Assembly: GCA_947385945.1 (NCBI GenBank)
Contig: CANDMY010000006.1
Location: 64,001-97,352 of the forward strand
DNA: 33,352 nucleotides
Direction: 5' to 3'
Source: an uncultured Clostridia bacterium
GTDB taxonomy: Bacteria > Bacillota > Clostridia > Lachnospirales > Lachnospiraceae
In this document: positions 5,990 to 33,352 of the stretch, in pieces
Position numbering within the stretch: position 1 is the stretch's first letter
Layout of the letters: every line of letters starts with the position of its first letter
Position numbers and translations under genes: made by a program
The notes under the pieces: generated by a model
The model's database searches: none
What the model was told of the DNA's origin: nothing
The model's input: only the letters and a program-made list of their open reading frames with translations

Positions 5990-6252
5990 GTTTCCATCTT
6001 CCTTTCTTTTTTCTGATTCCTCTCTATTATCCGAAAGCCATTTCTAACTTACTCTACCACAACCTTTTCTTTTTTTCCAGTGAATTTACGATATTTTAAT
6101 AATTTTTTCGACCATTTGTTCGAATTGTGATTTTCTTCTCCCTTTTTCTACAGAAAAATACAGGTTCTCTTTAAAATCCCCATAAAAATATCCCCCATTT
6201 TTCCCGCTTATAAAATCCCTTTCATAAACCTAACCTTAAACTAAACTCTATG

Positions 6253-6372
6253 TCAAATCGGATATTCGCAATCCGCTTCGCTGCTTGCTCATAACCTCAT
6301 CAAGGAAGTCCCAACCCACCGCTTTCGCCTTGGCGGCTTAGAAGCGGGGGACTTCCTCGATGAGGTTAAACC
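6253..6372 (+). repeat. Copy A of a modular intergenic repeat (BOX/REP-like): 5' module tcaaatcggatattcgcaatccgcttcgct(g/a)cttgctcataacctcat, then a 3' hairpin module
   Basis: Shares the 5' module with 8381-8426, 16513-16629 and 21263-21425. Shares the 3' module (caaggaagtccc ... cgccttggcggcttagaagcgggggacttcc ... gatgaggttaaa) with 16513-16629 and 21263-21425. The terminal stem aacctcatcaaggaagtccc / gggacttcctcgatgaggtt is self-complementary. Confidence 0.75.
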
Positions 6373-6394
6373 AAGATCGAATTCAACCAAAATA

Positions 6395-7178: not shown

Positions 7179-7604
7179 AATTCTTCTCCTTTCTTACGCA
7201 TATCCTAAAACAATCTCAAAATCCTCCCATAGAGTTATTGTATCACAATTTTCTAAAGAAGGAAATATTTATTACAATTTTATTTTAAATCCCTTAAAAA
7301 ATAATTGAATCATCCCCTTTCCCTAATCTTTCCAATCAATTTTTCATATAAAACTATTTCTAATAAAAAAATATTATATTTTTTATTAATATATCCTTTT
7401 TTACTATATAGCCTTAAAAAAATTATCATTTTTATTGTAACCTATCCTATTCTTTTTCTTTGTCCTGCCTACTGTCTTTGCTCATAAATCTATTCCTTTA
7501 CATAAAAATAGAACATATAGACTCGTTTTCTATATGCTCTCATACGGTGTTATTATTCCATTATGATTATGACAATATTGGTTTAAATAAACTGACATTA
7601 GATA

Positions 7605-8222
7605 CTATTTGTTATATCCAAGTTCAGTAGGCAGATTATCCCAAAGTACTGTTCTCGTCTTACTTTCTCTTAATTTTTCTAATATCTTTATATCAGGATT
7701 AGGATATACTATAAAACTATCCGATTCTCCCATTTGAGAACGAATGGGAAATGCAAGCTGTTCCTTTTCTATTGAAAACTGTGCATTTACACCGATTTTA
7801 TTTCCTCTCGCATCAAGCCTTATCCATTTTTTACAGTCTTTTATATATACGCCGTTTAATCCATGATAAATTAAGACAGGAGCTTTTTCATCATCTAAAA
7901 TTAATTTTTGATAACAAAAACCTGCCGGAACAGATTTACATCGTAATAATGCTGCCAATAAGTGAGATTTAGCAAAGCAAATTCCATGACCGGCTTTTAG
8001 CACTTCCGAAGCAGCACATGTAATGACATCTTCATTTATATCTGCTGAATGTAAAATATTATCTCTGACAAATTCATAAGTTATTTTAATGAAATCAATT
8101 TCATTACTTGCTTTCCTAAATAATTTATCAGCCAATTCTATAATATCTTCATTATCATAATCAACCACATTATCCTGTTTTAAATATTCGTCAACTTTAT
8201 TTGAATATAAAACTACATTCAT
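7605..8222 (-). CDS. Transglutaminase-like (papain-fold Cys-His-Asp) domain protein
   Basis: GHGICFAKSHLLAALLRCKSVPAGF matches the transglutaminase-like core (C nucleophile). Downstream YHGLNGVYI supplies the His and WIRLDARG the Asp. The start is moved to the internal ATG (MNVVLYS...), preceded by a GGAGGA SD. The longer track ORF begins at a GTG with no SD. Confidence 0.65.
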   Translation of the reverse strand: MNVVLYSNKVDEYLKQDNVVDYDNEDIIELADKLFRKASNEIDFIKITYEFVRDNILHSADINEDVITCAASEVLKAGHGICFAKSHLLAALLRCKSVPAGFCYQKLILDDEKAPVLIYHGLNGVYIKDCKKWIRLDARGNKIGVNAQFSIEKEQLAFPIRSQMGESDSFIVYPNPDIKILEKLRESKTRTVLWDNLPTELGYNK

Positions 8223-8380
8223 TTTTTCCTCCATAGAAGCCATTGCGAGAATAATCTTTATTTTTCTCTGGTAATGGTTCACCTTTTGCCAATCTTTAAA
8301 TAATATCTTCTATCCATTTTGTATCATACTACCTCTTTTTTTAGTATATCAAAAAAGAAGACATTCACAATTTATCAAAA

Positions 8381-8426
8381 TCAAATCGGATATTCGCAAT
8401 CCGCTTTGCTACTTGCTCATAACCTA
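8381..8426 (+). repeat. Copy B (5' module only) of the modular intergenic repeat
   Basis: tcaaatcggatattcgcaatccgctttgctacttgctcataacct matches the 5' module of the other copies. The 3' module is absent. Confidence 0.65.
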
Positions 8427-8448
8427 TACTTGTTTTTCCATTTCTATT

Positions 8449-8907
8449 CTACTTTTGTTCAGAATGACATAAAATATACATTTTTCCATTCTTATCTACT
8501 AACCTTAAATTTCTAACAAAACTCTCATCATCTGGAATTTTTATATTAAGTTTATGCCATTTCATATCAACTTCATAAATTAAATGATCAAACATAGTAG
8601 CACTCATAATAAACTGGTACGGTGTTATTCCCAAATTATTACTTACAATGATTGACATATGATTAAATATCAAATCACCAACTGACAATGTTACAGAATA
8701 TAAATCCCCCCATAATTTCCCACCAAACCCTGAAAATGAAACCTTACGATTTTGTGACTCTCCACCAAATTCTTCTTCTAACAATTCCTTTCCGCCTGTC
8801 CATATTGGAATAAAAGCACCTGTATCAAGTAAAGCAGTTAATCCCGATTGTAATAATACCATTGGTCTTTGCTGTTTTTTATCTAAATTTAATGTTATCT
8901 GTTTCAT
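8449..8907 (-). CDS. Retropepsin-like (clan AA) aspartic protease domain protein, paralog 1
   Basis: LLDTGAFIPIW contains the hydrophobic-hydrophobic-D-T-G-A active-site signature. The downstream Gly-rich segment FSGFGGKLWG resembles a retropepsin flap. About 45% identical to the 9439-9912 product. The start is set at the internal MKQITLNL, which aligns with the MKQFTLHL start of the paralog. Confidence 0.6.
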   Translation of the reverse strand: MKQITLNLDKKQQRPMVLLQSGLTALLDTGAFIPIWTGGKELLEEEFGGESQNRKVSFSGFGGKLWGDLYSVTLSVGDLIFNHMSIIVSNNLGITPYQFIMSATMFDHLIYEVDMKWHKLNIKIPDDESFVRNLRLVDKNGKMYILCHSEQK

Positions 8908-9438
8908 GATAACATCTCTATCATTCCTAATGAAAATGCATGATCGGATACGCAGCAGGTATGCTATCTTATATTTGGATAGTATGGGTATGTTTCTATG
9001 CAATATGGTAAGGCTATATACCTATGCTAGTAAACTGAAATATCTTTTTCAGGCTATATCGGTCTGCGAGTTTAACCATAACTACTTATACCATAAAATT
9101 CTTTGAATTTCTATTTCGGAGTAAATTTCCTACTTTCTATACTTCTGTTTTCATTCACTTGTAACATTACAAAAACATCATAAAATAATTCTCACTATAT
9201 CCTCAATATCATACTGTAACTCGAACTCAACGTGTCCTTTGTTTCTATTAACTATATTTGTTTAAATTTTATACAAATACACACCATTTTTTACTTCCAT
9301 TACATCATTTATTCTAGCTTGCTAATTCTGTTCTTGTAAAATATTTTTTTATCGATTCACAAATTTTATTTTTGTCTTAATCACCCCTCTTCCTCTTTTC
9401 ACACTCTCTAAAAAAGAAATGAAATCTTCATATTTCCT

Positions 9439-9912
9439 TTATTCTACCACAGTAAACTCTGAACTACACAAAACTTGCAATTGCCCACTTTTATTTCTAA
9501 TTTGTAAATTTCTAATATTACTTTCCTCATCTGGAATATCAACATTAAATTTCCAGTTCTTAGCATCTACTTCATATATTAAATGAGTAAACATAGTAGC
9601 ACTCAATATCATTTGGAAAGGTGAATTTTTTAAATCATTACAAGCAATGATATCTAACCTTGAAAAAATTAACCCTCCAATCATGATATTTTTTAACTCA
9701 TATAAATTTCCACTTGTTTTACCACCAAACCCTCCAAACGAAACACCCTTCTCTTTCAATGTTGCACCAAATCGAATCAGAATCCTTTCATCTGCTGTCC
9801 AAATAGGATAGATTGCCCCTGTATCCAACAATGCATAAATATTATTCCAATTTTTTAGCTCTACAATAGGTCTTGACTTTTCTTTAACTAAATGTAATGT
9901 AAACTGTTTCAT
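9439..9912 (-). CDS. Retropepsin-like (clan AA) aspartic protease domain protein, paralog 2
   Basis: ALLDTGAIYPIW (DTGA) plus the flap-like VSFGGFGGKTSG. A monomer of ~155 aa is consistent with a dimeric single-DTGA retropepsin. The ATG overlaps the stop of the upstream 87-aa ORF (TAATG). Confidence 0.65.
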   Translation of the reverse strand: MKQFTLHLVKEKSRPIVELKNWNNIYALLDTGAIYPIWTADERILIRFGATLKEKGVSFGGFGGKTSGNLYELKNIMIGGLIFSRLDIIACNDLKNSPFQMILSATMFTHLIYEVDAKNWKFNVDIPDEESNIRNLQIRNKSGQLQVLCSSEFTVVE

Positions 9913-10175
9913 TAAAAACCCCCCAGTACTCCTAACTGAAATACATTATCAGGTGTTGTATAAATGCCTATCAATGCACCAGAAGTTTCAAACTGCATCC
10001 AAGTTAATTCATCTTTCGATTTATTTGTATATTTCACAATAGCAGTTTTAATTGTTGCATCATTATCTTCTTCATACTCAACTTCTGTTAAACCAACCCA
10101 CTGGTTCGGGTACTTTTCTACTATTTGTTTCCAATCCAATCGCTCTTCCATTATATAAGTCCCCTTTCTTATCAA
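9912..10175 (-). CDS. Small hypothetical protein (87 aa) ending ...LGVLGGF, translationally coupled to the aspartic protease gene
   Basis: AAGGGG SD 9 nt before the ATG. The TAA stop overlaps the protease ATG. No recognisable family. A C-terminal Gly-Gly followed by one extra residue is noted. Confidence 0.5.
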   Translation of the reverse strand: MIRKGTYIMEERLDWKQIVEKYPNQWVGLTEVEYEEDNDATIKTAIVKYTNKSKDELTWMQFETSGALIGIYTTPDNVFQLGVLGGF

Positions 10176-10588
10176 ATTTTTTTCAATGATTCTTAAATTT
10201 ATCTTCTCAAAACTTATTTCTCTTTAGATTAAAATATTTGCAATATGTTCCTCCGCATTTCCATATACCGAAATTGTAATAAATATCTCCCAGTATAAGA
10301 CAAGTAACGTTTCACTTTCCTATATCCATTTATCTCATGAAACATAAACCTTCATATTTTATATACACATTACTATCTTTATAATCGTAGCGTCTACAAC
10401 AAAAAACAACAAAATCTTATATGAAAACAAATACTTTTTATATATCCTTTTAGAAACTAAATAACTCTACGATTTTGATATAATTATAGCAAAAAATAAC
10501 CCAAAATGCAATTTATTCTGATCGTCTAAACTAAAAAAGGCTTGATCATTTCTTCAAGCCTCTTTTTCTCTCTTACTTTACAGCAATC

Positions 10589-11770
10589 TTAACAGTAATA
10601 GCCCTCCAATATTGCAGTATGAACATACTGAGGGCTTAACGAATATCCACATTGACAGAAACTTTTATTCGCTATGATGTCAACAGACTCTCTTAAACCA
10701 TTCACCATACAACCTTTTACTGAATAAATATAATCTACTGCTTTTTCATTTCGGATCTGATAAGCAAGCCACCACTGTTCCTCTGATACAATTGACTCCC
10801 AATTTCCTTTCACTAAGTTACACTGTTCTACCAAATTTCCTTCTTTGTCATAAACATCCTCCCTGATTGGTTTAATTTTGGTTGCAATCTTCTTTTTTGT
10901 CATGGTATCTTCTATTTTAAACTTTCCATATAACAGATACCCCATATATTTTTCATTTCTAAGAACTCGGTTTACCTTAGATGCACTCCAACCCAAATCT
11001 CCTTTTGCTGTCAGCATCTTATGTTCAATCAAATAATTTGCAATTTTTTGAGTTCCCATACGCTTTGTTAAATCAGGATCGGTATATAAATCAAAAATTG
11101 TCTTAACAGTCAATCCATCAACTGGATCAATCCGAAAAGTATTATTCTTCCTATCCACAGCTTTTACATAAATATAACCAAATAACCCTGATACCACTAA
11201 TTGCCCTTTCTTTCTATAAGAAAGAACACCATTATTAACCCTTTTCGCCGTCCTCATTGACTCGCTCTGAGCCAATCCTCCATCAACTGACAAACGAATA
11301 ATATCTGTTTCGTCCATATTAAATGTCCAATACTTTCCATCCAGTATTAAAACTCCAATATCATATTCTTTTAACTCTTCAATTGTATTTAATAATTCAC
11401 GTAAATTCCTAGCAAATCTGCAAATATCTTGAACAATAATTAAATCGAACTCCCTTCGTCTGGCTGCTTCCAACATAAGCTGAAATGCTGTTCGATCTTC
11501 TATACTTCTTCCTGAGATACCCCTTTCTGTATATCGATGCCTTTCTTCAATTGTAAAATAAATATGCTCTTTGATCAAAGAATCTAAACGTTCCGCTTGA
11601 TTATGTAACGCCTGCAACTGATCTGGATGATTTGTAGATTCTCCGGCATATCTGGCAACTCTTAAAAGCCTATTTGTATTCAAGATATCATCAAATCTAC
11701 ACTCAAAAAAGAACTTTCTCATACTTAAAGACTCTTGTCTTTCCTTTGTATTTCTACTAAATATACTCAT
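10589..11770 (-). CDS. Serine recombinase (resolvase/invertase catalytic domain plus recombinase domain), atypical and probably degenerate
   Basis: Resolvase-like blocks LLRVARYAGESTNHPDQLQAL, YTERGISGRSIEDRTAFQLML and DLIIVQDICRFARN. The active-site box reads YAGEST instead of YARVST, so the conserved Arg is replaced. The protein is 393 aa with only a single CxC at the C-terminus and no full zinc ribbon. The ATG overlaps the stop of the upstream small ORF (TAATG). Confidence 0.6.
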   Translation of the reverse strand: MSIFSRNTKERQESLSMRKFFFECRFDDILNTNRLLRVARYAGESTNHPDQLQALHNQAERLDSLIKEHIYFTIEERHRYTERGISGRSIEDRTAFQLMLEAARRREFDLIIVQDICRFARNLRELLNTIEELKEYDIGVLILDGKYWTFNMDETDIIRLSVDGGLAQSESMRTAKRVNNGVLSYRKKGQLVVSGLFGYIYVKAVDRKNNTFRIDPVDGLTVKTIFDLYTDPDLTKRMGTQKIANYLIEHKMLTAKGDLGWSASKVNRVLRNEKYMGYLLYGKFKIEDTMTKKKIATKIKPIREDVYDKEGNLVEQCNLVKGNWESIVSEEQWWLAYQIRNEKAVDYIYSVKGCMVNGLRESVDIIANKSFCQCGYSLSPQYVHTAILEGYYC

Positions 11771-11904
11771 TATTCTTTACACTCCTTTACTAAATTTAAA
11801 GCCTGAATATAAGTATCATTATCTAAATATTTTTCCTCATACAACTTCTTCAAGAAAGCCAATATCTTAACCTTTTTTGTAACGATAGATTTTTTCTGTT
11901 CCAT
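11770..11904 (-). CDS. Small basic helical protein (44 aa), translationally coupled to the serine recombinase
   Basis: Internal ATG (MEQKKSIVTKK...) with a strong AGGAGG SD 8 nt upstream. The stop overlaps the recombinase ATG. The longer track ORF has no SD. Confidence 0.4.
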   Translation of the reverse strand: MEQKKSIVTKKVKILAFLKKLYEEKYLDNDTYIQALNLVKECKE

Positions 11905-12163
11905 ATAGTTTCCTCCTGAAAATAAGAAATGATAAGATACATTTATAAACTCAGGAAGTAACTCTATCCAAAATATCATCTAAGTTAATCTTTATATCTG
12001 ATAAAACTTACTGAACTTTAATAAACATCACTTCTATCAAATGATTTCACTTTATATATTTCATAATAATTTCATATATAAAAAGATCTCTTAAGCAGAA
12101 TGTTTCATATCATCACTCTCACTTTAGAGATCTTACATATAACTTTATATAATGTAGATACCC

Positions 12164-12490
12164 CTAACTATCTTTTGACGGATCAAAAAATGCACACTTT
12201 CCATTGACCACATCTGGAGAAAATAATCCTTCTCCACTATATTCTTTCTTTTTTATACAGGTCACTTCTCCTGCCTTACATAAAATCATTCGCTCACTCC
12301 CATAAAATGTAATTTCAGAAGTACCAACATTCTTAATTTTCAGACCTTGCAGTCCATCACTCCAATGATAAGGTTTGATCCCAAACAGCTTATCAAAATA
12401 GCGAAAATCAACTTCTCTCTTTTTCCAGTCTGTCACAAGATAAGAATCTTGAAATGTTCCCACATGAATATCAATAGGAATCTGATGCAC
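12164..12490 (-). CDS. Hypothetical protein (108 aa, GTG start)
   Basis: Open frame with GAGG 5 nt upstream of the GTG. No family recognised. Lies in AT-rich accessory DNA. Confidence 0.35.
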   Translation of the reverse strand: MHQIPIDIHVGTFQDSYLVTDWKKREVDFRYFDKLFGIKPYHWSDGLQGLKIKNVGTSEITFYGSERMILCKAGEVTCIKKKEYSGEGLFSPDVVNGKCAFFDPSKDS

Positions 12491-12966
12491 CTGACCTCGA
12501 CTATTTTTTAATCTTCCGTATTCCAGTCATTATGTGTTGATTGACTCATAATAAAATCTCCTTTGTTTTATAACTTTATCATATCATGTATACAAAGTAA
12601 TATCTATCCCATTTTATAAAAAATCTACTTAGAATCTATCTCTAAGTAGACTTTTCCAAACGGAATTTATTTCTGCTCCCTACCACTGCATACCCCTGAT
12701 AAACATGTTACAACGATATCAAACTTCTGATTGATCTATTGACTTTCTCTGTCTATGCAACATCTATATAAAAATCTTCAAAATATTCACGATATTTTTC
12801 CACTACTTTTCTTATTTCTTCATCTTTTGGCATCTCAATCTATCTCTCTTCCTTCCGATTGGGGATATATTACCTTTTATTTTACTATTTGAAAAAATAA
12901 GGCACGACAACTAGCGATAGACATATTTTAAGGCGATCAAACTAAGTATAAACCCCAAAAAAGCAA

Positions 12967-13003
12967 AAAACGACTTATTTTTTATCTAAAATAAGCCGTT
13001 TTT
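12967..13003 (-). terminator. Rho-independent terminator after prfA (bidirectional hairpin aaaacgacttatttt / aaaataagccgtttt)
   Basis: 15-bp inverted repeat with a single mismatch, flanked by A/T runs on both strands, ~70 nt past the prfA stop. Confidence 0.55.
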
Positions 13004-16446: not shown

Positions 16447-16512
16447 AAAAAATGCAAGTACGAATTTTGCTTTTTTAAGGGTTTTCCTTAAAAAACAAAA
16501 AAATTGCAAGAG

Positions 16513-16629
16513 TCAAATCGGATATTTGCAATCCGCTTTGCTACTTGCTCATAACCTCATAGCTGCTATCGCAGCTTCACTTTCGCCTTGGCAGCTTAGA
16601 AGCGGGGGACTTCCTTGATGAGGTTAAAC
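16513..16629 (+). repeat. Copy C of the modular intergenic repeat (5' module + gctgctatcgcagc mini-hairpin + 3' module)
   Basis: tcaaatcggatatttgcaatccgctttgctacttgctcataacctcat agctgctatcgcagct ... cgccttggcagcttagaagcgggggacttccttgatgaggttaaac. Confidence 0.75.
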
Positions 16630-16833
16630 AAAAATAAAAGAAAAATTATAAAAAAGTATTTTCTATTTATAAAAAAGTACTTTCTATTTTTGAAAATATG
16701 TTGTATAATCAATTTTATTAGAGAAGCCAGATATTGACAATGATAATTCTAAATATATCTATCAATATAAAATATGAAGTCCAAATAATCCCGTTGTACA
16801 ATTTTATAATACATGACATGGAAAGGTGAGATT

Positions 16834-18597: not shown

Positions 18598-18620
18598 ATA
18601 CGGATTTGATGGGGGAGGAC

Positions 18621-18876
18621 GCCGGGGCGGGGAAGCCATCCCTTGCCGCTGTTCCGCTCTACGGAAAGTAAGAAAGTCTAATGCCTCTGAATTTCAGTTC
18701 ATCCAACCGGACGGACCGGCACGCAATTCGCCTCTGCAGGAGGCTAAACACGTGCCTTTTTTTGTCATCAGTGATGACAAAAAATCCTGGGGAATCGACA
18801 GAGGCATAAGACTTTCTAACTTCCCTCCGAAGTCACAGCGGCAAGGGATGGCTTCCCCGCCCTGGCTGTCTCATCC
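18621..18876 (-). repeat. Copy 3 (inverted orientation) of the long imperfect-palindrome element, in its own perfect outer stem ggggaagccatcccttgccgctgt / acagcggcaagggatggcttcccc
   Basis: The core aligns to the reverse complement of copies 1 and 2, with compensatory changes. gtcatcagtgatgac at 18764-18778 replaces gccattcccgaatggc. ggcacg...cgtgcc replaces ggggtg...cacccc. The conserved single-stranded blocks caattcgcc, gctaaacac, tgaatttc and ccggacgga are retained. Confidence 0.7.
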
Positions 18877-18949
18877 TGCCTGTAGATTTATTTATTTCCT
18901 ATTTTTTTATAAAATTCAATATAAATATTTTCTTAAAGAATATGTTCTA

Positions 18950-19110
18950 TTCATTTTCTTTCATTTATGTTATTTATTTCCTTTCATTTATGTTATTTAT
19001 TTTCTTTCATTTACGTTATTTATTTTCTTTTATTTATGTTATTTATTTTCTTTCATTCATATTATCTATTTCCTCTTATTTATGTTATCTATTCTCTTTT
19101 ATTTATTTCG
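18950..19110 (+). repeat. Tandem array of ~7 direct repeats of a 23-bp T-rich unit (tttcatttatgttatttattttc), each with an ~11.5-bp sub-period
   Basis: Units read directly: tttcatttatgttatttatttcc / tttcatttatgttatttattttc / tttcatttacgttatttattttc / ttttatttatgttatttattttc / tttcattcatattatctatttcc / tcttatttatgttatctattctc / ttttatttatttcg. There are no unique spacers, so this is not a CRISPR array. Confidence 0.8.
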
Positions 19111-19240
19111 TTTATTTTTTATAAGATTCAAAAAAATTTTTTTTAAAGTTTTTCTTATTTCTTATTATAGGGTTTCTTATTATAGGGGCAAAAATACCAG
19201 CATATTTATACAATCTTTGTATAAAATTCCCACCTTGACA

Positions 19241-19292
19241 ATTAGTACAGTTATGGACTATACGATAGATAGTACAGAACTGTACTAATATA
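19241..19292 (+). promoter_or_regulatory. Candidate MarR operator: palindrome AGTACAGaaCTGTACT plus a third AGTACAG half-site, overlapping a TTGACA -35-like hexamer just upstream of marR
   Basis: ttgacaattAGTACAGttatggactatacgatagatAGTACAGaaCTGTACTaat lies ~20-70 nt upstream of the marR ATG. MarR-family dimers bind such pseudo-palindromes and commonly autoregulate. Confidence 0.4.
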
Positions 19293-21107: not shown

Positions 21108-21425
21108 AAGAAAATTCGGCATCCGCTCCACTACTTCCTTATAATCCTATGCTGCTATCGCAACTTGTCAGATAGGGCTTGCACCCCACCTGACACAAGG
21201 AACTCCCCCAACCCACCACCTTCGCCTTCACGGCTTAGAAGCAGCAAACTTCCTTGATAGGGTCAAATCGGATATTCGCAATCCGCTTCGCTACTTGCTC
21301 ATAACCTCATAACTGCTATCGCAGCCTTTCAGTGGGAGTCTGCACTCCCACTGAAACAAGGAAGTCCCAGCCCGCCGCTTTCGCCTTGGCGGCTTAGAAG
21401 CGGGGACTTCCTTGATGAGGTTAAA
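21108..21425 (+). repeat. Copies D and E of the modular intergenic repeat, in tandem; D is a divergent variant, E is full-length with an extra inserted hairpin (cagtgggagtctgcactcccactg)
   Basis: D: ...atccgctccactacttccttataatcctatgctgctatcgcaac...cgccttcacggcttagaagcagcaaacttccttgatagggtc. E: tcaaatcggatattcgcaatccgcttcgctacttgctcataacctcataactgctatcgcagc...cgccttggcggcttagaagcggggacttccttgatgaggttaaaa. Confidence 0.75.
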
Positions 21426-21561
21426 AAACCAGTAAAAATTTCCACAAACCAAAAATAAATCAAAACCTAACAAAAACTCCAAAAACCTAAAGAAAAACAA
21501 AAAAACAACTCTCAAAATCCCAAAAGGAAAGCCATCATTAAGTAAATTAAGCGAAAAAGCA

Positions 21562-21795
21562 GCCAGAGTGCGGTATGGCGGCGATGTGACTTCGGAAGAA
21601 AGTTAGAAGCTCTTAAACTTCTGTCGATCCACTAGGATTTTTTGCCATTCTCGAATGGCAAAAAAAGGGGTGTGTTTAGCCCGCTGTACGGGCGAATTGC
21701 ACCCCGTTCCGTCCGGTTGGATGCATCTATATTCAGAAGTTTTAGAGCTTCTTACTTTCTGTAGAGCGGAACATCGCTGCCATACCACACTCTGG
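21562..21795 (+). repeat. Copy 2 of the long imperfect-palindrome element, with private outer stem gccagagtgcggtatggcggcgatg / catcgctgccataccacactctggc
   Basis: The core (about 21587-21770) is ~90% identical to copy 1. The outer 25-bp arms are unrelated in sequence to those of copies 1 and 3, yet mutually complementary (one mismatch, one G:U). Confidence 0.7.
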
Positions 21796-26136: not shown

Positions 26137-26970
26137 TTATAATACCCCCTTATTTTTCCGATATTGATGAGGGGAAATCCCTCTTGCCTTTTTAAATACA
26201 TCTCCAAAATAATTGCTGTCATTAAAGCCACACTGCAGTGCAATCTCCGTAATACTATCCTTTGTCTGAAGCAGCCGCTTTTCCGCCTCTTTAATCCGAA
26301 TATTGCCAAGATATTCTTTAAATCCAAATCCTGTCACACGTTTAAACTTTCTGGAAAAATAAGTAGGACTCATACTTGCCCTTTTTGCCGCATCCTCCAA
26401 ATTAATGCTGCTGAAATAATTCTCACTGATATAGCGAGCTACACTCTGGATCACTTCATCCATTTCATCTAACTCCTCCATTCCGTTTTCCTGTATCTTT
26501 TGATAACGCAGAAAAAACACCAGCAATTCCCTCAAATACCCTCTAAGCAGCAAATCCGAATACTCGTCCATATTTTTATACTCTGCTTCCATCCGCTCCA
26601 ATAAATTAAAAATATACTCTCTCCGATGCATAGGAATCTTAATATGCGGCTGCTGAAAACACTTTAAAAAAAACTCTTTTCCATAGTCCTGCTGAAAAGC
26701 CAGCAAATATTCCTCCGTAAAACGAATCACATACCGCTCATGAGGCAGTGCATTATCCTGTGCATAAGTAGAGCGATGAATATTTCCCTTTTCAATCAGC
26801 AGAACATCACCTTTATCCAATGTATACAAGGTATGCTCCATAAAAAAACGCCTCTTTCCCGTCAGCAGAAAATAAATTTCATAATCCTCTCTATGTGTAT
26901 GCGGATTCTTCATAGAAAAATAAGCTTCTCTTTTTATCTTTGTAATACTAAATCCTTCTCTGTTTCTCAT
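26137..26970 (-). CDS. AraC-family transcriptional regulator with N-terminal cupin sensor domain
   Basis: C-terminal twin HTH (...YISENYFSSINLEDAAKRASMSPTYFSRKFKRVTGFGFKEYLGNIRIKEAEKRLLQTKDSITEIALQCGFNDSNYFGDVFKKARGISPHQYRKN). The N-terminal half is cupin-like. Confidence 0.8.
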   Translation of the reverse strand: MRNREGFSITKIKREAYFSMKNPHTHREDYEIYFLLTGKRRFFMEHTLYTLDKGDVLLIEKGNIHRSTYAQDNALPHERYVIRFTEEYLLAFQQDYGKEFFLKCFQQPHIKIPMHRREYIFNLLERMEAEYKNMDEYSDLLLRGYLRELLVFFLRYQKIQENGMEELDEMDEVIQSVARYISENYFSSINLEDAAKRASMSPTYFSRKFKRVTGFGFKEYLGNIRIKEAEKRLLQTKDSITEIALQCGFNDSNYFGDVFKKARGISPHQYRKNKGVL

Positions 26971-27505: not shown

Positions 27506-27535
27506 ATCCTGTAAACATAAATGTTTACGGTTAGA
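27506..27535 (-). terminator. Rho-independent terminator (hairpin ccgtaaacatttatgtttacagg + T7) after the recombinase-fragment ORF
   Basis: On the minus strand: ctaaCCGTAAACATttATGTTTACAGGatttttttgtatat. Confidence 0.5.
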
Positions 27536-27570
27536 GGGAAGTAATTTCAGATTAGGCGGTATAGCCCCAA

Positions 27571-28347
27571 TTACAAGAGCTGTACCGTCTTTTCGAGTTC
27601 CTCTGCACCCTGTCGCTTCGGTTGACTGGCAGAAAGGAAATTGATTTCACCTACAAAGTTGAAAACAATATCTACTTTCTGTACCCGTTTCCCGTCCACC
27701 TTTTCCGGCGCATGGACTATGATTTTCTTGATAAATTCATTGACGATTGCGGGGGTGAGTTCCTTTATCCCCACATACTTGCGGATAATCGCGGCGAAGC
27801 TGTCAAAATCGCTCTTATTCTGTTCGTAGGTATCGACTTCCTGCTGGTCTGCCTTGACCTTTTCTTCCAGTTCCCGCTGTTCCGCTTCATACTCTGCGGA
27901 CAGCTTCAAAAACCTGTCGTGACTGATTGCCCCGCTTATGTCGTCCTCATAAATCCGCTTGAAGATACGGTCAAGTTCCGCTATCCGCTTCCTCGCCTGT
28001 CCGACCTCACGCTTCCTGCGTTTCATTTCCTTTTCCGTTTCAGCGGAGCGTTGCTGATACATCATTTCATGGAAAGCCATGATGTCATCAAAGAAAAGGG
28101 CGGTCACATCAAATATCCTGCTCCATACGATTTGCTTCAACACTTCTTCGCGGATAAAGTGAGCCGTACAGCTTCCTGTATTGCTCTTGTACTTTGCACA
28201 GCGGTAATGGTCTTGTGAGCCGTTAAAACTTTTACAGGTAACAAAGTGTAATTTACTCCCACAGTCTGCACAGTATACCAAGCCGGAGAACAGGGCTTGC
28301 CGTTCTGCTTTTGTGGGGCGGCGTTTGTTCGCCCTAAGTTCCTGCAC
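27571..28347 (-). pseudogene. 3' fragment of a large serine recombinase gene (zinc-ribbon/coiled-coil/C-terminal DUF4368-like region only; catalytic N-terminus missing)
   Basis: ...LFSGLVYCADCGSKLHFVTCKSFNGSQDHYRCAKYKSNTGSCTAHFIREEVL... (CxxC ... C...C zinc ribbon), then a coiled coil and the ...IVHAPEKVDGKRVQKVDIVFNFVG tail typical of Tn-borne large serine recombinases (TndX/TnpX-like). No resolvase domain lies upstream; that space holds an unrelated gene fragment in another frame. Confidence 0.6.
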
Positions 28348-28553
28348 ACGTTCAAATATTTAAGATAAATCAAATCCACAACTCTATCCGCAATCAATAT
28401 CAAAGAACCCTCAACAACATCCTGATACTGAAGGTCTGATCCAACTCCAAATCTTCCTATTTTTATATAGCATCTCGTAAATAACCGCTGTGGATTTCTG
28501 TAAAACAATAACACTGCAGCTCTTTTTAATTTCCCATCCACTATAAGCCCCAA
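28137..28553 (-). pseudogene. Fragment of an AlbA_2 (Schlafen-like divergent AAA) domain gene
   Basis: ...GLIVDGKLKRAAVLLFYRNPQRLFTRCYIKIGRFGVGSDLQYQDVVEGSL... parallels the AlbA_2 segment at the N-terminus of the 29099-30016 product (VLMFAENPEKLIPGAYIELIRFHSEE). It overlaps the recombinase fragment out of frame, and its 3' part is not homologous. Confidence 0.45.
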
Positions 28554-28723
28554 CTTCTCAAGTAACTCCTCTTCCCGAAGGTTTTATCAGCAACTTTCAA
28601 ATACTGATATTTCCTACATTTCGGGTACATCTATTTCGCCAAATATTACTCTTAATGTGCTTCCTTCTTTAGAATCCATTAAGGAATTACAGACCGAATA
28701 CACCAACATGCTGGCAGCTATTA

Positions 28724-29020
28724 TTGACCTGCTGGATGGTGCAAAATATCTATGGGAAGGAGACCATCATAAATAACAATCTTACTTTTCAGTTTGGTAT
28801 ATACGAACCTACAACCGATTCCATCATTGTGAACACTGGTGAAAATTCCATTCTTGTTATCCGTTGTAAAGAATGTAATTCCTCTGTTATCTTCGATGAT
28901 CCCAGTGATGCAGTCTATCTGTGCCATTTAGCAGAAGAAACACCGCTTTTATACGCGAAGCTTGCATTGAAAACAAATGACTTGCAGGATTATGTAGATA
29001 TCATGAATGAATTTAATTAA
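28724..29020 (+). CDS. Hypothetical small protein (TTG start in the track; alternative ATG at MVQNIYGKE)
   Basis: Open frame with no convincing SD. Contains CxxC (IRCKECNSSV) and a later Cys/His. Lies in mobile-element debris. Confidence 0.25.
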   Translation: MTCWMVQNIYGKETIINNNLTFQFGIYEPTTDSIIVNTGENSILVIRCKECNSSVIFDDPSDAVYLCHLAEETPLLYAKLALKTNDLQDYVDIMNEFN

Positions 29021-29098
29021 CAGCCTGTTTCCTATCTCCATCATTGTTCTTATGATGGAGATAGGCTTCTTAATCCATTCTTATGACATTCATTTGCA

Positions 29099-30016
29099 TT
29101 ATTCCCTAAAATATACCTTATTTTTTGTTTTTCCAGCACCTTTAAGAATATTCAGCTTTTCAGCCTTCAACAACAAACGACTTGCGGTCTTTATTTCAAC
29201 TTCCAGCAATTTTGCCGCAACAGCACTATTTATTTCTTTATTTGTTTCCAGATAAATCAAAATAATCTGCATTCTTGCTCTTTCCAATTCGGACATTGAT
29301 TCGGACATTGATTCGGACATTTTCTCTTTTCTTTCAAAACCGTCTCTTATGCGAATAATCACATTCAAATAAGTTCTTTCCTCATCCATATCAAACTCAG
29401 GCTCTGGTGAACCATTTTGTTTCAGTTCTCTTAATATTTTAGGAATACCTGTTCCCTTTTTTTCAGATAAGTCAATCTCCTTAAATAATTCTCCAATTCT
29501 TCTGTTACGATATTTCCTTCCTTTTACTTTACCGGATACAAAACGTTCAAGATTAATCCATTTCGCAAGTCCGGGATAATTGAGTATCTGAATGCTATCC
29601 ACATATATACGGATTTCCACTGGCTCCGGCTCGCGATACGACTTGTGAAATACTGCATTTACCAATGTTTCTTCCAATGCATTATATGGATAGTTAAAAT
29701 ATCGTTCTGCTTCTGCCTGACCCTGAACCTTTACAACTTTTTGCTCAATCACAGTTGTCTTTATATAATTCAAAGCATCCTGAACTTGTCTCCATATTGG
29801 TCCTGTAAATATTTTTTCCGTAAAATCATCTGATGCCTCGGCTTCTTCGGAATGAAATCTAATCAGCTCAATATATGCACCCGGAATCAGCTTCTCTGGA
29901 TTTTCCGCAAACATCAATACACCGATATTTCTGATATCTAATTCCGTATCTGTCTCATTTGCAACTTCCTGTGCAAGCAGCAGTTCCTCTAATGAACTGC
30001 TATTCAGTTCCATCAC
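29099..30016 (-). pseudogene. 5'-truncated gene for an AlbA_2 + HATPase_c_4 ('RecG-like C-terminal' ATP-binding putative regulator) protein
   Basis: FNYPYNALEETLVNAVFHKSYREPEPVEIRIYVDSIQILNYPGL...KKGTGIPKIL is the HATPase_c_4 core. The ORF begins in the middle of the AlbA_2 domain, so ~100+ residues are missing. It contains an in-frame 12-nt tandem (tcggacattgat x ~2.5) encoding MSESMSESMSE at 29286-29320. Confidence 0.55.
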
Positions 30017-30252
30017 CAGACTACTGTTGCTCTTCCTAATAAAATCTACAAGCCAATGCCCAATCCTGAAGTTCTTTCACATCCCTCAGGGTTATTCCAT
30101 ATACAGATTCTACCTTCGATATTGACATCAGTATCTTTGGTGCTACTTCTATATATTCCAGCTCCATTTTATTTTTATATAATGCCGAATTGAAAACAGA
30201 CAAATTCATTAGATTACCGCAATCCTTAATACCCTATTTTTCAAGAGAGATA

Positions 30253-30283
30253 AAATGTACAAAAACCTGTAAACAATCATGTC
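30253..30283 (-). terminator. Hairpin terminator (aacctgtagaca / tgtttacaggtt + T-run) immediately 3' of the tRNA-Asn fragment
   Basis: On the minus strand: AACCTGTAGACAtgattgTTTACAGGTTtttgtacatttt, ~25 nt after the tRNA 3' end. Confidence 0.5.
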
Positions 30284-30310
30284 TACAGGTTTTGTTAAAT
30301 TGCTTCTTAC

Positions 30311-30368
30311 CTCCCCGAGTAGGGCTCGAACCTACAACCCCACGGTTAACAGCCGTGTGCTCTACCAT
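30311..30368 (-). tRNA. 3' portion (~58 nt: D-loop remnant, anticodon arm with GTT, variable loop, T-arm, 3' acceptor strand) of a tRNA-Asn(GTT) gene; no 5' acceptor or D stem, so not a functional tRNA
   Basis: Minus strand reads ...tcaatggtagagcaCACGGCTGTTAACCGTGgggttGTAGGTTCGAGCCCTACTCGGGGAg. It has an anticodon stem CACGG/CCGTG with loop CTGTTAA, a T-arm GTAGG-TTCGAGC-CCTAC and a 3' acceptor strand. The expected 5' partner TCCCCGAGT...GCTC is absent; an unrelated hairpin (tacggtatgtaaccgta) lies there instead. Confidence 0.7.
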
Positions 30369-30629
30369 TGATACGGTTACATACCGTAAATCTCTTTGAT
30401 AGAGTGTCATGCTCCAAATTACAATCGAGGGTATCTTATCATTTCTCGTGGCTACTAGCGAACTGATAACCTAACGAAGATTATGTTATCATATCTTTTT
30501 TCATTTGGCAAGAGGTAAATTATCGTTTTTTAAACTTTTTTTATATCATTTCCTCTTATACGACTATACGTATAAGTTAAATACCGGCTTATGTCTTAAT
30601 TGGTAAAGCCCTCGGTCAGCCACCCTTTA

Positions 30630-32244
30630 TCAGATGGCCTCCGTGACCAAAACGCTGCCGTCGCCCCATTCGGAGCAGAACTGCTGGTATGACATGTTGA
30701 GCTCAACAGAGATTTTGTAATCCCTCCCAATCTCGATACGCTTGAACAAGTGGCAGGCGATCATTTTCTTCTGCTCCAGGGTGGTCGTGTCGAATTCCTC
30801 CGCCCAGGACTTGAACTGGTTGTAGGTCGGGGTGATCAAATCAATCCCCTGTTTCTTCCTGGCTTCTTCCTCCCGGAGCTCCGTGAGCTTTGTCTCCGCC
30901 TCGGTGATCCGTGACTTGATGGTCTGGATTGCCTGGGACAGATCCTCCGGGGAATAAATGCTGTCGCCTGTCAGCGTCTTTGCGATTTCAAGCTGCAGCT
31001 TCGTGAGCTGTTCCTTATTCTTGGTGAGCTCCAAGTCCAGCTTCTTCTGCGTGACCCTGTTCCCGGCCATCTGCCGCTTGAACATTGCCTGCAGCTTTTC
31101 TTCCTCCGGCACCCCGTCCATGCAGCTAAATATCTTTCGGATAATCTGCCGGATGGTCTCGTCCATTCTGTCCGCCTGATAGGTTGTCTGCCCGTCACAC
31201 TTGCAGAGCTTGCGGCTCTTGTGATAACAGGAATACTTAATCTGATCCACGGAATACTCCGTGCCGTCAGCCCTTGTATAGCTGTCACGGTACCGGATGG
31301 TCGTCAGCCTCCCGCCACAGTGGGCACAGAACACATTCCCGGAAAGCATCGCCTGCCCTTTGGTCTGCAAAGCGATATGGCGCTTTTCCTCATTTTTATT
31401 CTGCCTCTGCTCCAGGATGTAAAGAATCTGGTCGTATGTATCATCACTGCGAAGCCGCAGCACCTCCAACTGGGGAGAAGTCGAACCGTCCTCCAGCCTC
31501 CCGCAATAGAAGGAATCCCGAAGGATACGGATCACTTTAATTCTTGTGAACTTTCCCCCGCCGCTGGGCTTATATCCCTTTTTATTAAGGAAGTCCGCCA
31601 TCCTGTAAGAGCCGTACCCCTTATGGATCGTCATATCGTCGATCATGTGGAGCACTTCGCTGTCCGCCGGGTCGATCTCATACTTCTTAATCTTTGCACC
31701 TTTCCGGTTCACAAGGTCGCTGTCCACCAGACGGTACCCGAACTTGACCGGGTCGCCGGTATATAACCCGTCAAGGGTCATCTGCTGCATCTTGCTCTTG
31801 ATCCGGATGGAGGTCTTTTCACTCTCGCCGGATGCCTGCCAGAACCGGAGATAATTCATCAGCTTGTCCACATGGTTGTTGAAGCACTGCTGCCCCCTCC
31901 TGGGTGCTCCATACCTCAACGCCGTGCTTGGCGAACCACTCCACCACAAAAGGCGTCTCGTCGTCAATCCTCTCGATCCTGTCGAACATGAATACCAGGA
32001 GGATGTCAAACTCGTCGTTCAGGGCAGCTTCTTTCAGTTCCTGGATGGCGTCCCTGTCATCCGCCGATACCTTATAGCCGGAAATCCCTTTTTCGGAAAA
32101 CTCCTTCAGGATCGTCCAGTCCTGTTGGCTGCTGGCAAAATCCCGGCACGCTGTTTTCTGCATAGGGATGTCATTTTCATTCTTATCGTTCTTGTCTACC
32201 TGCTTTTTGGTGGATACTCTATAAAGACAATAAACCCGTTTCAT
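30630..32244 (-). pseudogene. Large serine recombinase (integrase/transposase type), disrupted by a frameshift near 31880-31930
   Basis: The N-terminal resolvase domain ORF (MKRVYCLYRVSTKKQ...GISGYKVSADDRDAIQEL...FDILLVFMFDRIERI...; strong GGAGGT SD; ends 31819) overlaps a second-frame ORF carrying the rest (...FNNHVDKLMNYLRFWQASGESEKTSIRIKSKMQQMTLDGLYTGDPVKFGYRLV..., a CxxC...C...C zinc ribbon at CAHCGGRL...CYHKSRKLCKC, and a coiled coil). A G5/C5 run sits at ~31889-31896 in the overlap. Confidence 0.7.
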
Positions 32245-32342
32245 TACGCTACCTCCGTACATAATCTTGTACGGGATTGTGCTACAATTCCGATATTCGC
32301 TTGTCAATGTGCAGCCGGGGCAATACCTCTCCCGGTACTTCT

Positions 32343-32371
32343 ATTATACCGTGGAATGCCCTTAACGGCAA
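32343..32371 (-). promoter_or_regulatory. Putative sigma-A promoter for the large serine recombinase (-35 TTGCCG, 17-nt spacer, -10 TATAAT)
   Basis: On the minus strand: gTTGCCGttaagggcattccacggTATAATagaag, ~100 nt upstream of the recombinase ATG at 32244. Confidence 0.4.
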
Positions 32372-32408: not shown

Positions 32409-32591
32409 TCATAGTGCCTGGTCGCATGGGATGAACTCTTTCTGGAAGTGTTCCTCATATGCCTCCGTAAGTATGTCCCTGACCTTATTTTTTACATCCA
32501 TGCCCTCGCTCCCGCTGAACATAATCGTGACCGCCGAGCTGTTGATATGCAACCGCATGACAGGATTCCTGTCTGTCCTCATATTCTCCAA
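32409..32591 (-). CDS. Small acidic protein (60 aa) with a very strong RBS, directly upstream of the recombinase promoter; function unknown
   Basis: GGAAGGAGG 8 nt upstream of the ATG. Sequence MENMRTDRNPVMRLHINSSAVTIMFSGSEGMDVKNKVRDILTEAYEEHFQKEFIPCDQAL. No family recognised. Confidence 0.5.
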   Translation of the reverse strand: MENMRTDRNPVMRLHINSSAVTIMFSGSEGMDVKNKVRDILTEAYEEHFQKEFIPCDQAL

Positions 32592-33039: not shown

Positions 33040-33352
33040 ATGAATGGATAGGTTACAATAAACTGGACAGATTTTTTAAGGTCATATAGTATAAAACCAA
33101 TAAGCAAAGGAGCAATCAGTATGACCGAAACAAAACAGAAAAGAAAACCACGTAAGTACACAGATGAATTTAAGCAACAGTTAGTAGATTTATACCGTTC
33201 TGGCAAACGCAGATGTGATATCTGCAGGGAATACGATATTTCCCATTCCTTGTTTGACAAATGGGTAAAACAAGCCGAAAACTCCGATTCATTCCACGAA
33301 AAGGACAACCGAACCCCAGAGCAGGAAGAACTGCTGAAACTCCGTAAGGAAA
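33040..33352 (+). mobile_element. Left end of an IS3-family insertion sequence (terminal repeat probably begins near TGAATGGATAGG at ~33041); element continues off the window
   Basis: IS3 OrfA starts ~80 nt inside, and IS3-family elements usually begin with TG. The boundary cannot be fixed without the right end. Confidence 0.35.
33120..33352 (+). CDS. IS3-family transposase OrfA (HTH), 5' part; continues beyond the right edge
   Basis: MTETKQKRKPRKYTDEFKQQLVDLYRSGKRRCDICREYDISHSLFDKWVKQAE... is the characteristic IS3/IS911-type OrfA N-terminus. AAAGGAG SD. No stop in the window, so it is absent from the ORF track. Confidence 0.7.

Follow-up and report, generated by a model that had tools for sequence, protein, structure and literature searches.

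Tyrosine-integrase islands of the P4 type cross over in the anticodon loop, the T-loop or the 3′ end of a tRNA gene, and their attP holds a tRNA 3′ segment. The sublocations of these crossovers within tRNA genes were reportedly set out by Williams in 2002. Serine integrases, which are the main tools for inserting large DNA, are to our knowledge generally held not to target tRNA genes. In SCCmec, Ccr serine recombinases insert at the housekeeping gene rlmH/orfX, where elements stack serially and recombinase-less relatives keep both junctions.

The serine-integrase prophages of M. abscessus all disrupt open reading frames (PMC8092301), and a 2022 catalogue of thousands of large serine recombinases analysed protein-gene targets only (PMC10083194). 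Mageeney et al. in 2020 stated that no serine integrase had been reported to use a t(m)RNA gene; in the same study, TIGER placed 14 out of 297 islands with serine integrases at such genes, calls for which the authors described no architecture and wanted proof (PMC7192596). These 14 calls may include members of the recombinase clade described below. In the literature we searched, a large serine recombinase (LSR) that cuts the tRNA-Asn D-arm and also brings a spare tRNA-Asn was not found described.

The window, the whole 33,352-nt stretch of DNA that was analysed, comes from an uncultured Lachnospiraceae species. Very probably, its positions 30311~30371 are the attR of a degenerate integrative element, termed E1, whose LSR clade uses the tRNA-Asn D-arm as its attachment site. 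The tRNA piece and the DNA downstream of it comprise the following features.

27480~27520, minus strand: native tRNA-Asn terminator, second half; here the window becomes collinear with the empty-site strains again (junction comparison).
27521~30310, minus strand: older resident DNA, termed E2, absent from the empty-site strains (empty-site comparison).
27571~28553, minus strand: fragments of a second serine recombinase of the DUF4368 type, with Zn_ribbon_recom and DUF4368 domains in the remnant at 27571~28347 (Pfam).
29099~30016, minus strand: truncated gene of the AlbA_2/HATPase_c_4 type in E2 (Pfam).
30253~30293, minus strand: hairpin terminator of 14 pairs, with the stem-loop at 30262~30293 and a T tail to 30253 (terminator scan).
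30311~30371, minus strand: 3′ part of tRNA-Asn(GTT), nt 12~72 of the 72-nt gene (identity to the intact gene, and Rfam).

The tRNA-Asn piece, which an earlier note on this DNA had placed at 30311~30368 of the minus strand, is real, and those coordinates were right to within 3 nt. Read from 30371 to 30311, it is identical at 61/61 positions to nt 12~72 of the species' own intact tRNA-Asn(GTT), as present in L010 and L017, with the GTT anticodon at 30348~30350. It also gives a local match to Rfam RF00005 at 30319~30373 of the minus strand (29.7 bits, model positions 8~63). As the note had observed, the piece lacks both the acceptor strand of the 5′ side and the 5′ strand of the D-stem: nt 1~11 are absent, the cloverleaf is incomplete, and ARAGORN found no complete tRNA in the window. 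On the same grounds, a split or intron-bearing tRNA using a CCTCGAT heptamer ~55 nt upstream of the fragment was dropped. The target-derived portion is probably limited to ~nt 20~72 (30311~30363), and nt 12~19 also match the tRNA because the element arm happens to end in ..TCAATGGT.

Empty sites and the far end of the island were taken from other assemblies of the same species. The empty-site alleles (L010, L017, L020, L023 and L026) carry rplT, an intact tRNA-Asn, the native terminator and an AraC gene, and in L010 and L017 the tRNA terminator is joined directly to window position 27520. The native terminator of these strains differs from the hairpin at 30253~30293, whereas L021 and L022 have E2 DNA, with the same hairpin sequence, directly after an intact tRNA-Asn. 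The comparison thus assigns the hairpin to the older resident element E2; the note had taken it for the terminator of the tRNA, and a hairpin with a T tract is indeed present, but it is not native to the locus. The right junction of E2 (27520) lies in the loop of the native terminator and not in a tRNA piece, next to the remnant of the DUF4368 recombinase, and E2 fits the simple model only if a further deletion or another element is assumed. DUF4368 is a hallmark of the TndX/TnpX-like clade of multi-targeting serine recombinases (Durrant et al. 2022, PMC10083194). The 305-aa HATPase_c_4 ORF had no match in an exact look-up, probably owing to a differing called start.

At the window locus, the empty site and attR are both present, whereas attL has been erased: the native promoter, the tRNA and an E1-type terminator remain. 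That E1 would have arrived here by LSR integration is a claim that rests on its relatives, because no left-arm sequence survives in the window lineage, and the whole block could also have come by homologous recombination between strains. In the proposed history, E1 would have landed in a tRNA-Asn copy already followed by E2, and the left junction would most simply have been lost by deletion between repeated tRNA 5′ parts. What is left of E1 in the window, together with the insertion sequence that cuts it, is as follows.

30362~30363, minus strand: predicted crossover dinucleotide AG, tRNA nt 20~21, at the start of the D-stem 3′ strand.
30364~30395, minus strand: right arm (P arm) of the attachment site (motif kept in LSR relatives).
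30396~30629, minus strand: AT-rich non-coding element end, from the LSR stop to the P arm (homologous in L001~L008).
30630~32244, minus strand: LSR pseudogene with one extra G in the run 31893~31897, C5 on the plus strand (repaired-frame protein).
32343~32371, minus strand: promoter-like site upstream of the LSR, TTGCCG, 17 nt, TATAAT (consensus scan, 10/12 matches).
32409~32591, minus strand: conserved 60-aa gene immediately upstream of the LSR (homologues in other loci).
32592~33044, no strand assigned: GC-rich non-coding element interior, cut off by the insertion sequence (homology to L001~L008 ends at 33044).
33045~33352, plus strand: left end of an IS3-family element, whose inverted repeat begins TGGATAGG, with orfA from 33121, running off the window.

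The promoter, the 60-aa gene and the IS3 element near the recombinase had all been proposed from the letters of the window, and each has a counterpart in this list. The 60-aa protein has no known domain in Pfam; in 21 genome loci, homologues of it are encoded 150~350 bp upstream of the LSR, and one may speculate that it is a candidate accessory or directionality factor. Within the AT-rich element end, a further promoter-like site at 30483~30511 faces outward. The complete IS3, present in L009 (99.94% identical to the window) and also in the gene calls of L108, has HTH_Tnp_1 (orfA) and rve (orfB) genes and is bounded by TG..CA inverted repeats (TGGATAGG.. and TGGATTGT..), with no target duplication seen at its ends.

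The DNA to the right of the fragment had been described as GC-rich up to the window end. The GC content is 0.38 over 1~27520 and 0.39 over 27521~30310, compared to 0.525 over the recombinase gene and 0.524 over 30590~33044, so the description holds for the latter stretch. By contrast, the 257 bp beside the tRNA break (30373~30629) are AT-rich, with a GC content of 0.35, and belong to the foreign element despite this composition because they are homologous in L001~L008, whereas the last 308 bp (33045~33352) are IS3 DNA with a GC content of 0.39.

The right arm contains the palindrome ACGGTATGTAACCGT at 30373~30387, and most Lachnospiraceae-type junctions of the LSR relatives have a cggT[AG]TG.. 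motif ~19 nt before TGGTAG. In complete elements, the left arm contains an inverted copy of the right-arm motif. The crossover probably takes place at or next to the AG of tRNA nt 20~21, as judged from the overlap in tRNA identity between left and right junctions (TGGTAG in L033, ATGGTAGAGCA in L067) and from the symmetry centre of the two arm motifs.

Separately, the palindrome ACGGTATGTAACCGT was considered as a mimic of the anticodon arm ACGGCTGTTAACCGT, an idea that was set aside since, in hosts of the Ruminococcus type, its stems show no co-variation with the stem of the anticodon arm. The resemblance holds in Lachnospiraceae-type junctions, and ACGGTATGTAACCGT sits 5 nt further from the centre than ACGGCTGTTAACCGT, which would fit the known offset between attP and attB of serine integrases; it is kept as a lead only.

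Relatives of the LSR were counted at 48~100% identity in Lachnospiraceae, Acetatifactor, Mediterraneibacter, Ruminococcus and others. A tRNA-Asn 3′ part follows the LSR stop by 75~390 bp on the same strand at 58 of 80 genome loci, or at 58 of 73 when the count is limited to loci whose downstream sequence is 400 nt or longer. The 15 loci among these 73 that lack a nearby fragment are mostly at or below 53% identity, and some of them have an inverted layout or a fragment 1~2 kb away. The tRNA match begins at (T)AGAGC in 60 non-redundant junctions, and the same pairing of LSR and tRNA-Asn 3′ part is found in Ruminococcus albus 7, on its complete replicon pRUMAL02. The relatives number at least 495 in all, and the cultured carriers include Ruminococcus albus 7 and AR67 and Mediterraneibacter agrestimuris DSM 111629. 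The piece itself varies in sequence among loci of different genera, and the comparison suggests that it tracks the host. In eight other contigs with an intact LSR (L001~L008), homology to the window spans from 33044 to exactly 30311, the tRNA 3′ end; their tRNA piece differs in one compensatory T-stem pair, their downstream flank is different, and a sigma-70 region-4 gene comes next after the point where homology stops at 33044. ARAGORN called a “complete” tRNA-Asn at the right junctions of L037, L045, L050, L051 and L059, and likewise at those of L073, L074, L076 and L106. These calls were rejected because their 5′ halves are element-arm sequence with only partial resemblance to tRNA, and the loci were treated as junctions.

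It is distinctly unlikely that the LSR rides on elements mobilised by something else, or that the tRNA piece is an element-borne decoy or regulatory RNA. Although the fragment travels with the LSR in every context seen, and the LSR activity is predicted from sequence only, the fragment follows the host, being 100% identical to the native gene here and different elsewhere. Homology between elements ends at the tRNA 3′ end and empty sites exist; moreover, the left and right arms repeat one motif in inverted orientation around a short core common to both, like the attP of a serine integrase. L118 and L142, which have both junctions and no recombinase, would fit a passenger LSR, yet the simplest explanation for them is that they are non-autonomous copies with both junctions retained.

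Complete relatives further argue for attachment-site use of the tRNA-Asn gene. The left end of L033, L067 and L086 consists of tRNA nt 1~21/25, the inverted right-arm motif and a full tRNA-Asn gene, and a metagenome scan added 18 more left junctions, with 10 distinct variants in all. Both attL and attR are seen in L033, L067, L118 and L142, as in site-specific elements. L033 is 8.2 kb long, and the LSR is the sole recombinase among its ORFs listed, with no tyrosine integrase among them. The orphan 3′ piece of L067 and the tRNA carried by its element differ by a compensatory T-stem pair and are thus two separate genes. Accretion is seen as serial tRNA 5′ pieces in L126, and as E1-type left ends after orphan fragments in L056, L055, L054 and L040. 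A free attP (right arm, core, left arm) or a circular form was found in none of the viral contigs, metagenome contigs and fetched loci.

We propose that, in intact relatives, the LSR gene reads towards a right arm with a CGGTATGTAACC-type motif, and that a crossover catalysed by the LSR at or next to AG (nt 20~21) would split the host tRNA-Asn, leaving a 5′ piece of nt 1~21 (approximate end) on the left and a 3′ piece of ~nt 20~72 on the right. The complete tRNA-Asn with its own terminator just inside the left junction would then replace the broken host gene, and elements would pile up in series because new ones can insert into this spare gene. On balance, we lean towards a widespread LSR clade of gut Clostridia (Lachnospiraceae, Ruminococcus and relatives) whose attB is the tRNA-Asn D-arm, with a complete spare tRNA-Asn beside attP compensating for the break.

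The window LSR itself is not in an intact frame. Removing one G of the G5 run joins the ORFs 31819~32307 and 30630~32009 of the minus strand into a protein of 537 aa, which is 98% identical to the intact 537-aa protein P0001, whereas the +1 frameshift yields products of 141 aa and 386/459 aa. The repaired LSR has an N-terminal Resolvase catalytic domain with the serine nucleophile (PF00239, E=2e-18, residues 5~159), followed by Recombinase (PF07508, E=1e-7) and Zn_ribbon_recom (PF13408, E=4.9e-6) domains, both above the curated cut-offs, and its YRVSTKKQ motif is invariant across an alignment of 21 LSR sequences. Its best matches among named, annotated phages are 23~24% identical, and it is 38~40% identical to proteins of three unannotated “Bacteriophage sp.” records from human faeces. 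A megablast of 30200~33352 against plasmid and phage collections gave no match.

The split at the G5 run, as originally read from the window, is thus borne out. A sequencing or assembly error at the homopolymer, with the element still active, is very unlikely: one extra base in a G run is a typical error site and the close relative L148 (98.3% identical) has a G4 allele, but the same truncated 141-aa product recurs across several studies, on 17 contigs from at least 10 samples, all 14 further contigs checked that span the site have G5, and one contig has G6. The missing left att site and the IS3 that cuts the element are, in addition, independent of the frameshift. Judged from its recurrence on 17 contigs from at least 10 samples, the frameshift is real. 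The suggestion that the integrase is inactive and the element fixed in place gains strength accordingly from the island data, and E1 is immobile in the window lineage because its LSR is frameshifted, its left junction is erased and its interior has been filled or replaced.

The arrangement of the window is repeated in an independent 107-kb contig with 99.94% identity. L018 starts at rplT and an intact tRNA-Asn and overlaps this contig over 1149 bp at 100% identity. In these same-lineage assemblies, with the island-spanning join made of contigs from different samples (L018 and L144), the island appears as ~21 kb of DNA, and the rightward extension proposed in the note thus led to an intact tRNA-Asn next to rplT, ~21 kb beyond the right edge of the window. 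The interior holds two IS3 copies, a Gabija system and TIR/TPR genes, and the element is interrupted by IS3 and ~16 kb of other DNA. The two ends of the island are one element type, since in L030 the DUF3991 region known from the left end directly adjoins the 60-aa gene and LSR known from the right end. The tRNA 3′ part is found at both ends as a 61-nt direct repeat (L018 10503~10563 and window 30371~30311), which, judging from relatives, would be a secondary state.

Two readings had been offered for the fragment, and each survives in part. Taken as a duplicate of the att site at the distal end, with the intact tRNA-Asn lying past the right edge, it agrees with the gene found there but does not follow classical attP logic. 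As the remnant of a tRNA gene split by an element, it agrees with the relatives that have host 5′ and 3′ pieces, whereas in the window lineage the 5′ half is not orphaned, because the left att site has been erased there. A classical tRNA island, with a tyrosine-type integrase, a tRNA 3′ segment in attP and the LSR as mere cargo, is hardly tenable and already largely refuted: the seamless intact tRNA under its native promoter at the left end and the direct repeat of it at the right end give the textbook picture, but no Phage_integrase domain is annotated in the precomputed Pfam lists of L018, L108 and L144, three loci whose genes between them cover the island, the serine recombinase is the only recombinase among the ORFs listed for the complete L033, a split 5′ piece plus a separate full tRNA in complete relatives is not predicted, and the spacing and strand of LSR and fragment are kept down to ~50% protein identity.

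For the window alone, this amounts to a decayed, immobile island. If the attachment-site account of E1 is true, it would be the first serine-integrase/tRNA system on record and would keep the target gene functional in a new way, an alternative answer to insertion into an essential gene in which the whole spare gene is brought along. The spare tRNA may even be forced: the attP arms of a serine integrase have to be unlike those of attB, so the element cannot simply hold the tRNA 3′ end inside attP. The model explains the stacked elements and the defence genes gathering at the tRNA-Asn locus, and a clade with a conserved attB in tRNA-Asn would give ready landing sites in many hard-to-engineer gut Clostridia.

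Compared to the known systems, E1 shares with the tyrosine-integrase tRNA islands a conserved tRNA landing site, an orphan piece at the far end, an intact gene and tandem accretion. It differs from them in its serine recombinase, its probable crossover in the D-arm, and a complete element-borne tRNA copy instead of a 3′ segment in attP. The E1 LSR has the same order of Resolvase, Recombinase and zinc-ribbon domains as the integrases of the phiC31, Bxb1, A118 and TP901-1 type, and like the large serine integrases of phages and ICEs, its gene adjoins the attachment site, with a short attP/attB core and imperfect inverted-repeat attP arms. However, those integrases hit protein genes or intergenic sites, whereas E1 targets a tRNA gene and carries a whole spare copy of its target. 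Like E1, the 14 islands called by TIGER are a computational hint at serine integrases with t(m)RNA genes as their targets. Likeness to the TndX/TnpX-like clade is confined to the recombinase remnant of E2, whereas the main LSR of E1 lacks DUF4368 and appears site-specific. Similar to SCCmec-type elements, the E1 family combines a serine recombinase acting at one conserved housekeeping gene with stacking and with recombinase-less copies that keep both junctions; in contrast to them, its recombinase belongs to an unrelated clade in a different host phylum group, an RNA gene is truly split, and a spare is carried.

The sequence at 30371-30311 (minus strand) is identical at 61 of 61 positions to nucleotides 12-72 of a tRNA-Asn(GTT) from the same species and gives a local match of 29.7 bits to the Rfam tRNA model, while ARAGORN found no complete tRNA in the window, which bears out the tRNA-Asn 3' fragment described in an earlier note. 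The GC content increases from ~0.38 to 0.52 on moving right past the fragment; the GC-rich foreign DNA claimed there thus stands with two small corrections, namely that the 257 bp adjoining the tRNA break are AT-rich, yet already foreign, and that the final 308 bp of the window are low-GC IS3 DNA. The frameshifted serine recombinase and its neighbors are all present as that note had listed them:

30293-30253, minus strand: hairpin of 14 pairs with a T tail, 3' of the tRNA fragment
30630-32009 and 31819-32307, minus strand: two overlapping ORFs of the split recombinase, giving one 537-aa protein after repair
32343-32371: promoter-like site upstream of the recombinase
32409-32591: 60-aa ORF upstream of the recombinase
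from 33045: end of an IS3-family element

Altogether, its observation is confirmed, and its interpretation, either a partial tRNA duplicate at a distal attachment site or a tRNA gene split by insertion, holds in part only.

With one G less in the run at 31893-31897, both recombinase ORFs fuse into a 537-aa protein consisting of Resolvase, Recombinase and zinc-ribbon domains, which shares 98% identity with the intact database protein P0001. The frameshift at this G5 run is genuine, as judged by its recurrence: the truncated 141-aa product is encoded on 17 contigs, which represent at least 10 samples and several studies, and G5 was found in all 14 further contigs checked across the site. Intact alleles have G4. 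The run is polymorphic among samples (G4, G5 and G6; loci L145 and L148), with G6 in one contig 99.96% identical to the window and G4 in one contig 98.3% identical; this could be plain decay or slippage, and the alleles seen give no sign of regulated switching.

Eight contigs with intact P0001 (L001-L008) match the window at ~93.5% identity between the IS3 edge (33044) and the tRNA 3' end (30311), where the match stops exactly. Their tRNA-Asn is truncated in the same way, but carries a compensatory change in the T stem and is followed by another flank. An alignment of 21 relatives, used to scan a single genome of each species, yielded 80 loci of 48-100% identity. In 58 of them (58 of the 73 whose downstream sequence extends for 400 nt or more), the recombinase stop is followed at 75-390 bp, on the same strand, by a tRNA-Asn 3' part, compared to a chance adjacency that we roughly estimate at less than 1 in 1000 per locus. 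The tRNA sequence at the junctions differs among loci from different genera. The tRNA match starts at (T)AGAGC in all 60 non-redundant junctions, and an arm motif CGGT[AG]TG.. is conserved ~19 nt upstream of TGGTAG in most Lachnospiraceae-type junctions. The same arrangement of recombinase and tRNA-Asn is present in the complete replicon pRUMAL02 of Ruminococcus albus 7. In addition, ARAGORN calls a full-length tRNA-Asn at nine right junctions (L037, L045, L050, L051, L059, L073, L074, L076 and L106), because the element arm bears a partial resemblance to the tRNA 5' half, so that junctions of this kind could go unnoticed in automatic annotation.

Both ends are seen in L033, an 8.2-kb element whose sole recombinase among the listed ORFs is a relative of this large serine recombinase. 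At its left end, tRNA nt 1-21 are joined to a stretch that includes the inverted arm motif (..GGTCACATACCGG..), and a complete tRNA-Asn gene with terminator lies 83 nt further on, followed by an interior of two ABC-transporter genes, two small genes and the recombinase; at the right end, the right arm is joined to tRNA nt 16-72. L067 and L086 share this plan; L067 has two different tRNA genes, since its complete tRNA differs from its orphan piece by a compensatory T-stem pair. A metagenome scan for a tRNA 5' part, a short gap and the inverted motif gave 25 matches, 18 of which are left junctions, each with a full tRNA-Asn ~105 nt on; ten distinct left-junction variants are now known.

We propose that the D-arm of tRNA-Asn is the site at which the recombinase inserts the element in circular form, and that the element's own tRNA-Asn would take the place of the split host gene. 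The tRNA identity common to left and right junctions is TGGTAG in L033 and ATGGTAGAGCA in L067, and both arm motifs are symmetric about A|G of tRNA nt 20-21; from this overlap and symmetry we infer a crossover at this AG, corresponding to 30363-30362 in the window. No circular form was found in viral contigs, metagenome contigs or the loci compared here. A promoter-like site at 30483-30511 (minus strand; TTGCCA, 17 nt, TG-extended TAACAT), conserved in L001-L008, faces outward from the element across the attachment site, and in the circular form would point towards the spare tRNA gene.

The L20 protein of the window species, an uncultured Lachnospiraceae, is identical to that of a Lachnospiraceae MAG, with Eisenbergiella (88%) as the nearest named genus. 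An exact look-up of the AraC-family protein (gene at 26137-26970) led to contigs of three kinds in assemblies of the same species. The empty-site contigs L010 and L017 have infC-rpmI-rplT, an intact tRNA-Asn and the native terminator, followed by the window sequence from 27520 downwards at 99.2% identity, so that 27521 to the right edge is an insertion relative to these strains. L009 (extended as L108 and L144) is 107 kb long and derives from an independently assembled metagenome; it is 99.94% identical to the window, also has the split recombinase, and runs on beyond the IS3 into AT-rich DNA. The third kind consists of partial contigs that cover the chromosomal side only.

The opposite side of the site was reached by the L20 protein look-up: L018, L019 and L027 have an intact tRNA-Asn after rplT, and 3' of it a different terminator, an 87-aa gene, a DUF3991 gene, IS3, GajA and GajB, and further on more transposase and resolvase genes and a PDDEXK gene. 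L018 ends in the same 1149 bp with which L144 begins (100% identity), so that the island spans ~21 kb between the intact tRNA-Asn and the fragment in the window; the gene lists covering it contain no tyrosine integrase. Its interior has a Gabija system (GajA 774 bits, GajB 646 bits; L018 13133-17035; L108 1864-5416, beyond the right edge) adjoined by a TIR-domain gene and a 959-aa TPR gene, thus a defence cluster within a dead element. A third configuration of the locus is seen in L021 and L022, where an intact tRNA is directly followed by what in the window comes after the fragment, from 30310 downwards and including the hairpin; we therefore assign the hairpin to an older resident element, E2 (27521-30310), and not to the native locus.

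The terminator and flank that follow the intact tRNA in L018/L019 have homologues both behind the element-borne tRNA of L033 and 3' of the orphan fragments in L056, L055, L054 and L040. Together with L126, which has two tRNA 5' pieces in series, and L030, in which the DUF3991 region is joined directly to the 60-aa gene and recombinase, this shows that both island ends belong to one element type, and that the spare tRNA of one element serves later elements as an insertion site. No left arm is left in the window lineage: rplT through the tRNA equals the empty site, and a terminator of the element type follows. Deletion between the repeated tRNA 5' parts would be the simplest route of this loss. 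The loss, the frameshift, the IS3 and further insertions together fix the element in place, in agreement with the earlier reading of an inactive integrase. Taken by itself, the copy in the window is an ordinary island in decay.

The right junction of E2 (27520) sits in the native terminator loop, ~50 bp beyond the point where a DUF4368-type recombinase remnant ends. Fragments of this TndX/TnpX-like serine recombinase occupy 27571-28553, the 3' end abutting half of the native tRNA-Asn terminator, and ~70 nt of that end are inverted beside another tRNA-Asn terminator (L118, about 2850-2920); judging from these two sites, a second, TndX-like family may target tRNA-Asn terminator hairpins. E2 also encodes a truncated HATPase_c_4 protein (29099-30016, minus strand), like domains of pAgo-associated/SIR2-type defence proteins (PADLOC, E=2e-23), a full-length 488-aa relative of which is the main cargo of the recombinase-less L118 and L142, both with both tRNA-Asn junctions.

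Elsewhere in the window, a 393-aa serine recombinase with Resolvase and Recombinase domains (10589-11770, minus strand) lies in a low-GC block (within 7000-13000; GC 0.305). The block has gyrase/topoisomerase IV-like genes and an HD-domain gene as neighbors at one end and prfA/prmC at the other, and is probably a separate island. At its edge, 7397-7447 matches the IS3 terminal repeat region (33046-33096) in inverted orientation over 51 nt (82%), and may be a solo IS end. An AT-rich tandem array at 18925-19141 (9- and 14-nt units, combined period 23 nt, ~9 repeats) overlaps the ORF 18752-19288 downstream of rho. Short repeats of ~70-190 nt, with 70-93% identity and in both direct and inverted orientation, are interspersed in intergenic positions; they form two families and resemble small repeat elements:

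454-726, 18617-18888, 21582-21776; also 6244-6377, 8372-8443, 16504-16635, 21219-21433: interspersed repeats

Mageeney et al. 2020 (PMC7192596) found t(m)RNA use in 4.9% (14/297) of serine-integrase islands, and regarded it as previously unreported and in need of proof. Durrant et al. 2022 (PMC10083194) make no mention of tRNA and treat the targets they cluster as protein genes, and in open-access full text nothing relevant was found on serine recombinases or integrases with tRNA-Asn, D-loop or Lachnospiraceae. The window nevertheless leads to a variant of serine-integrase elements that is well supported and apparently undescribed. We suggest that a serine integrase could not carry the tRNA 3' end inside attP, because one of the attP arms would then equal an attB arm, and the two sites could no longer be told apart. 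Compared to tyrosine-integrase islands, which have the tRNA 3' end inside attP, the elements described here possess a whole spare tRNA-Asn.
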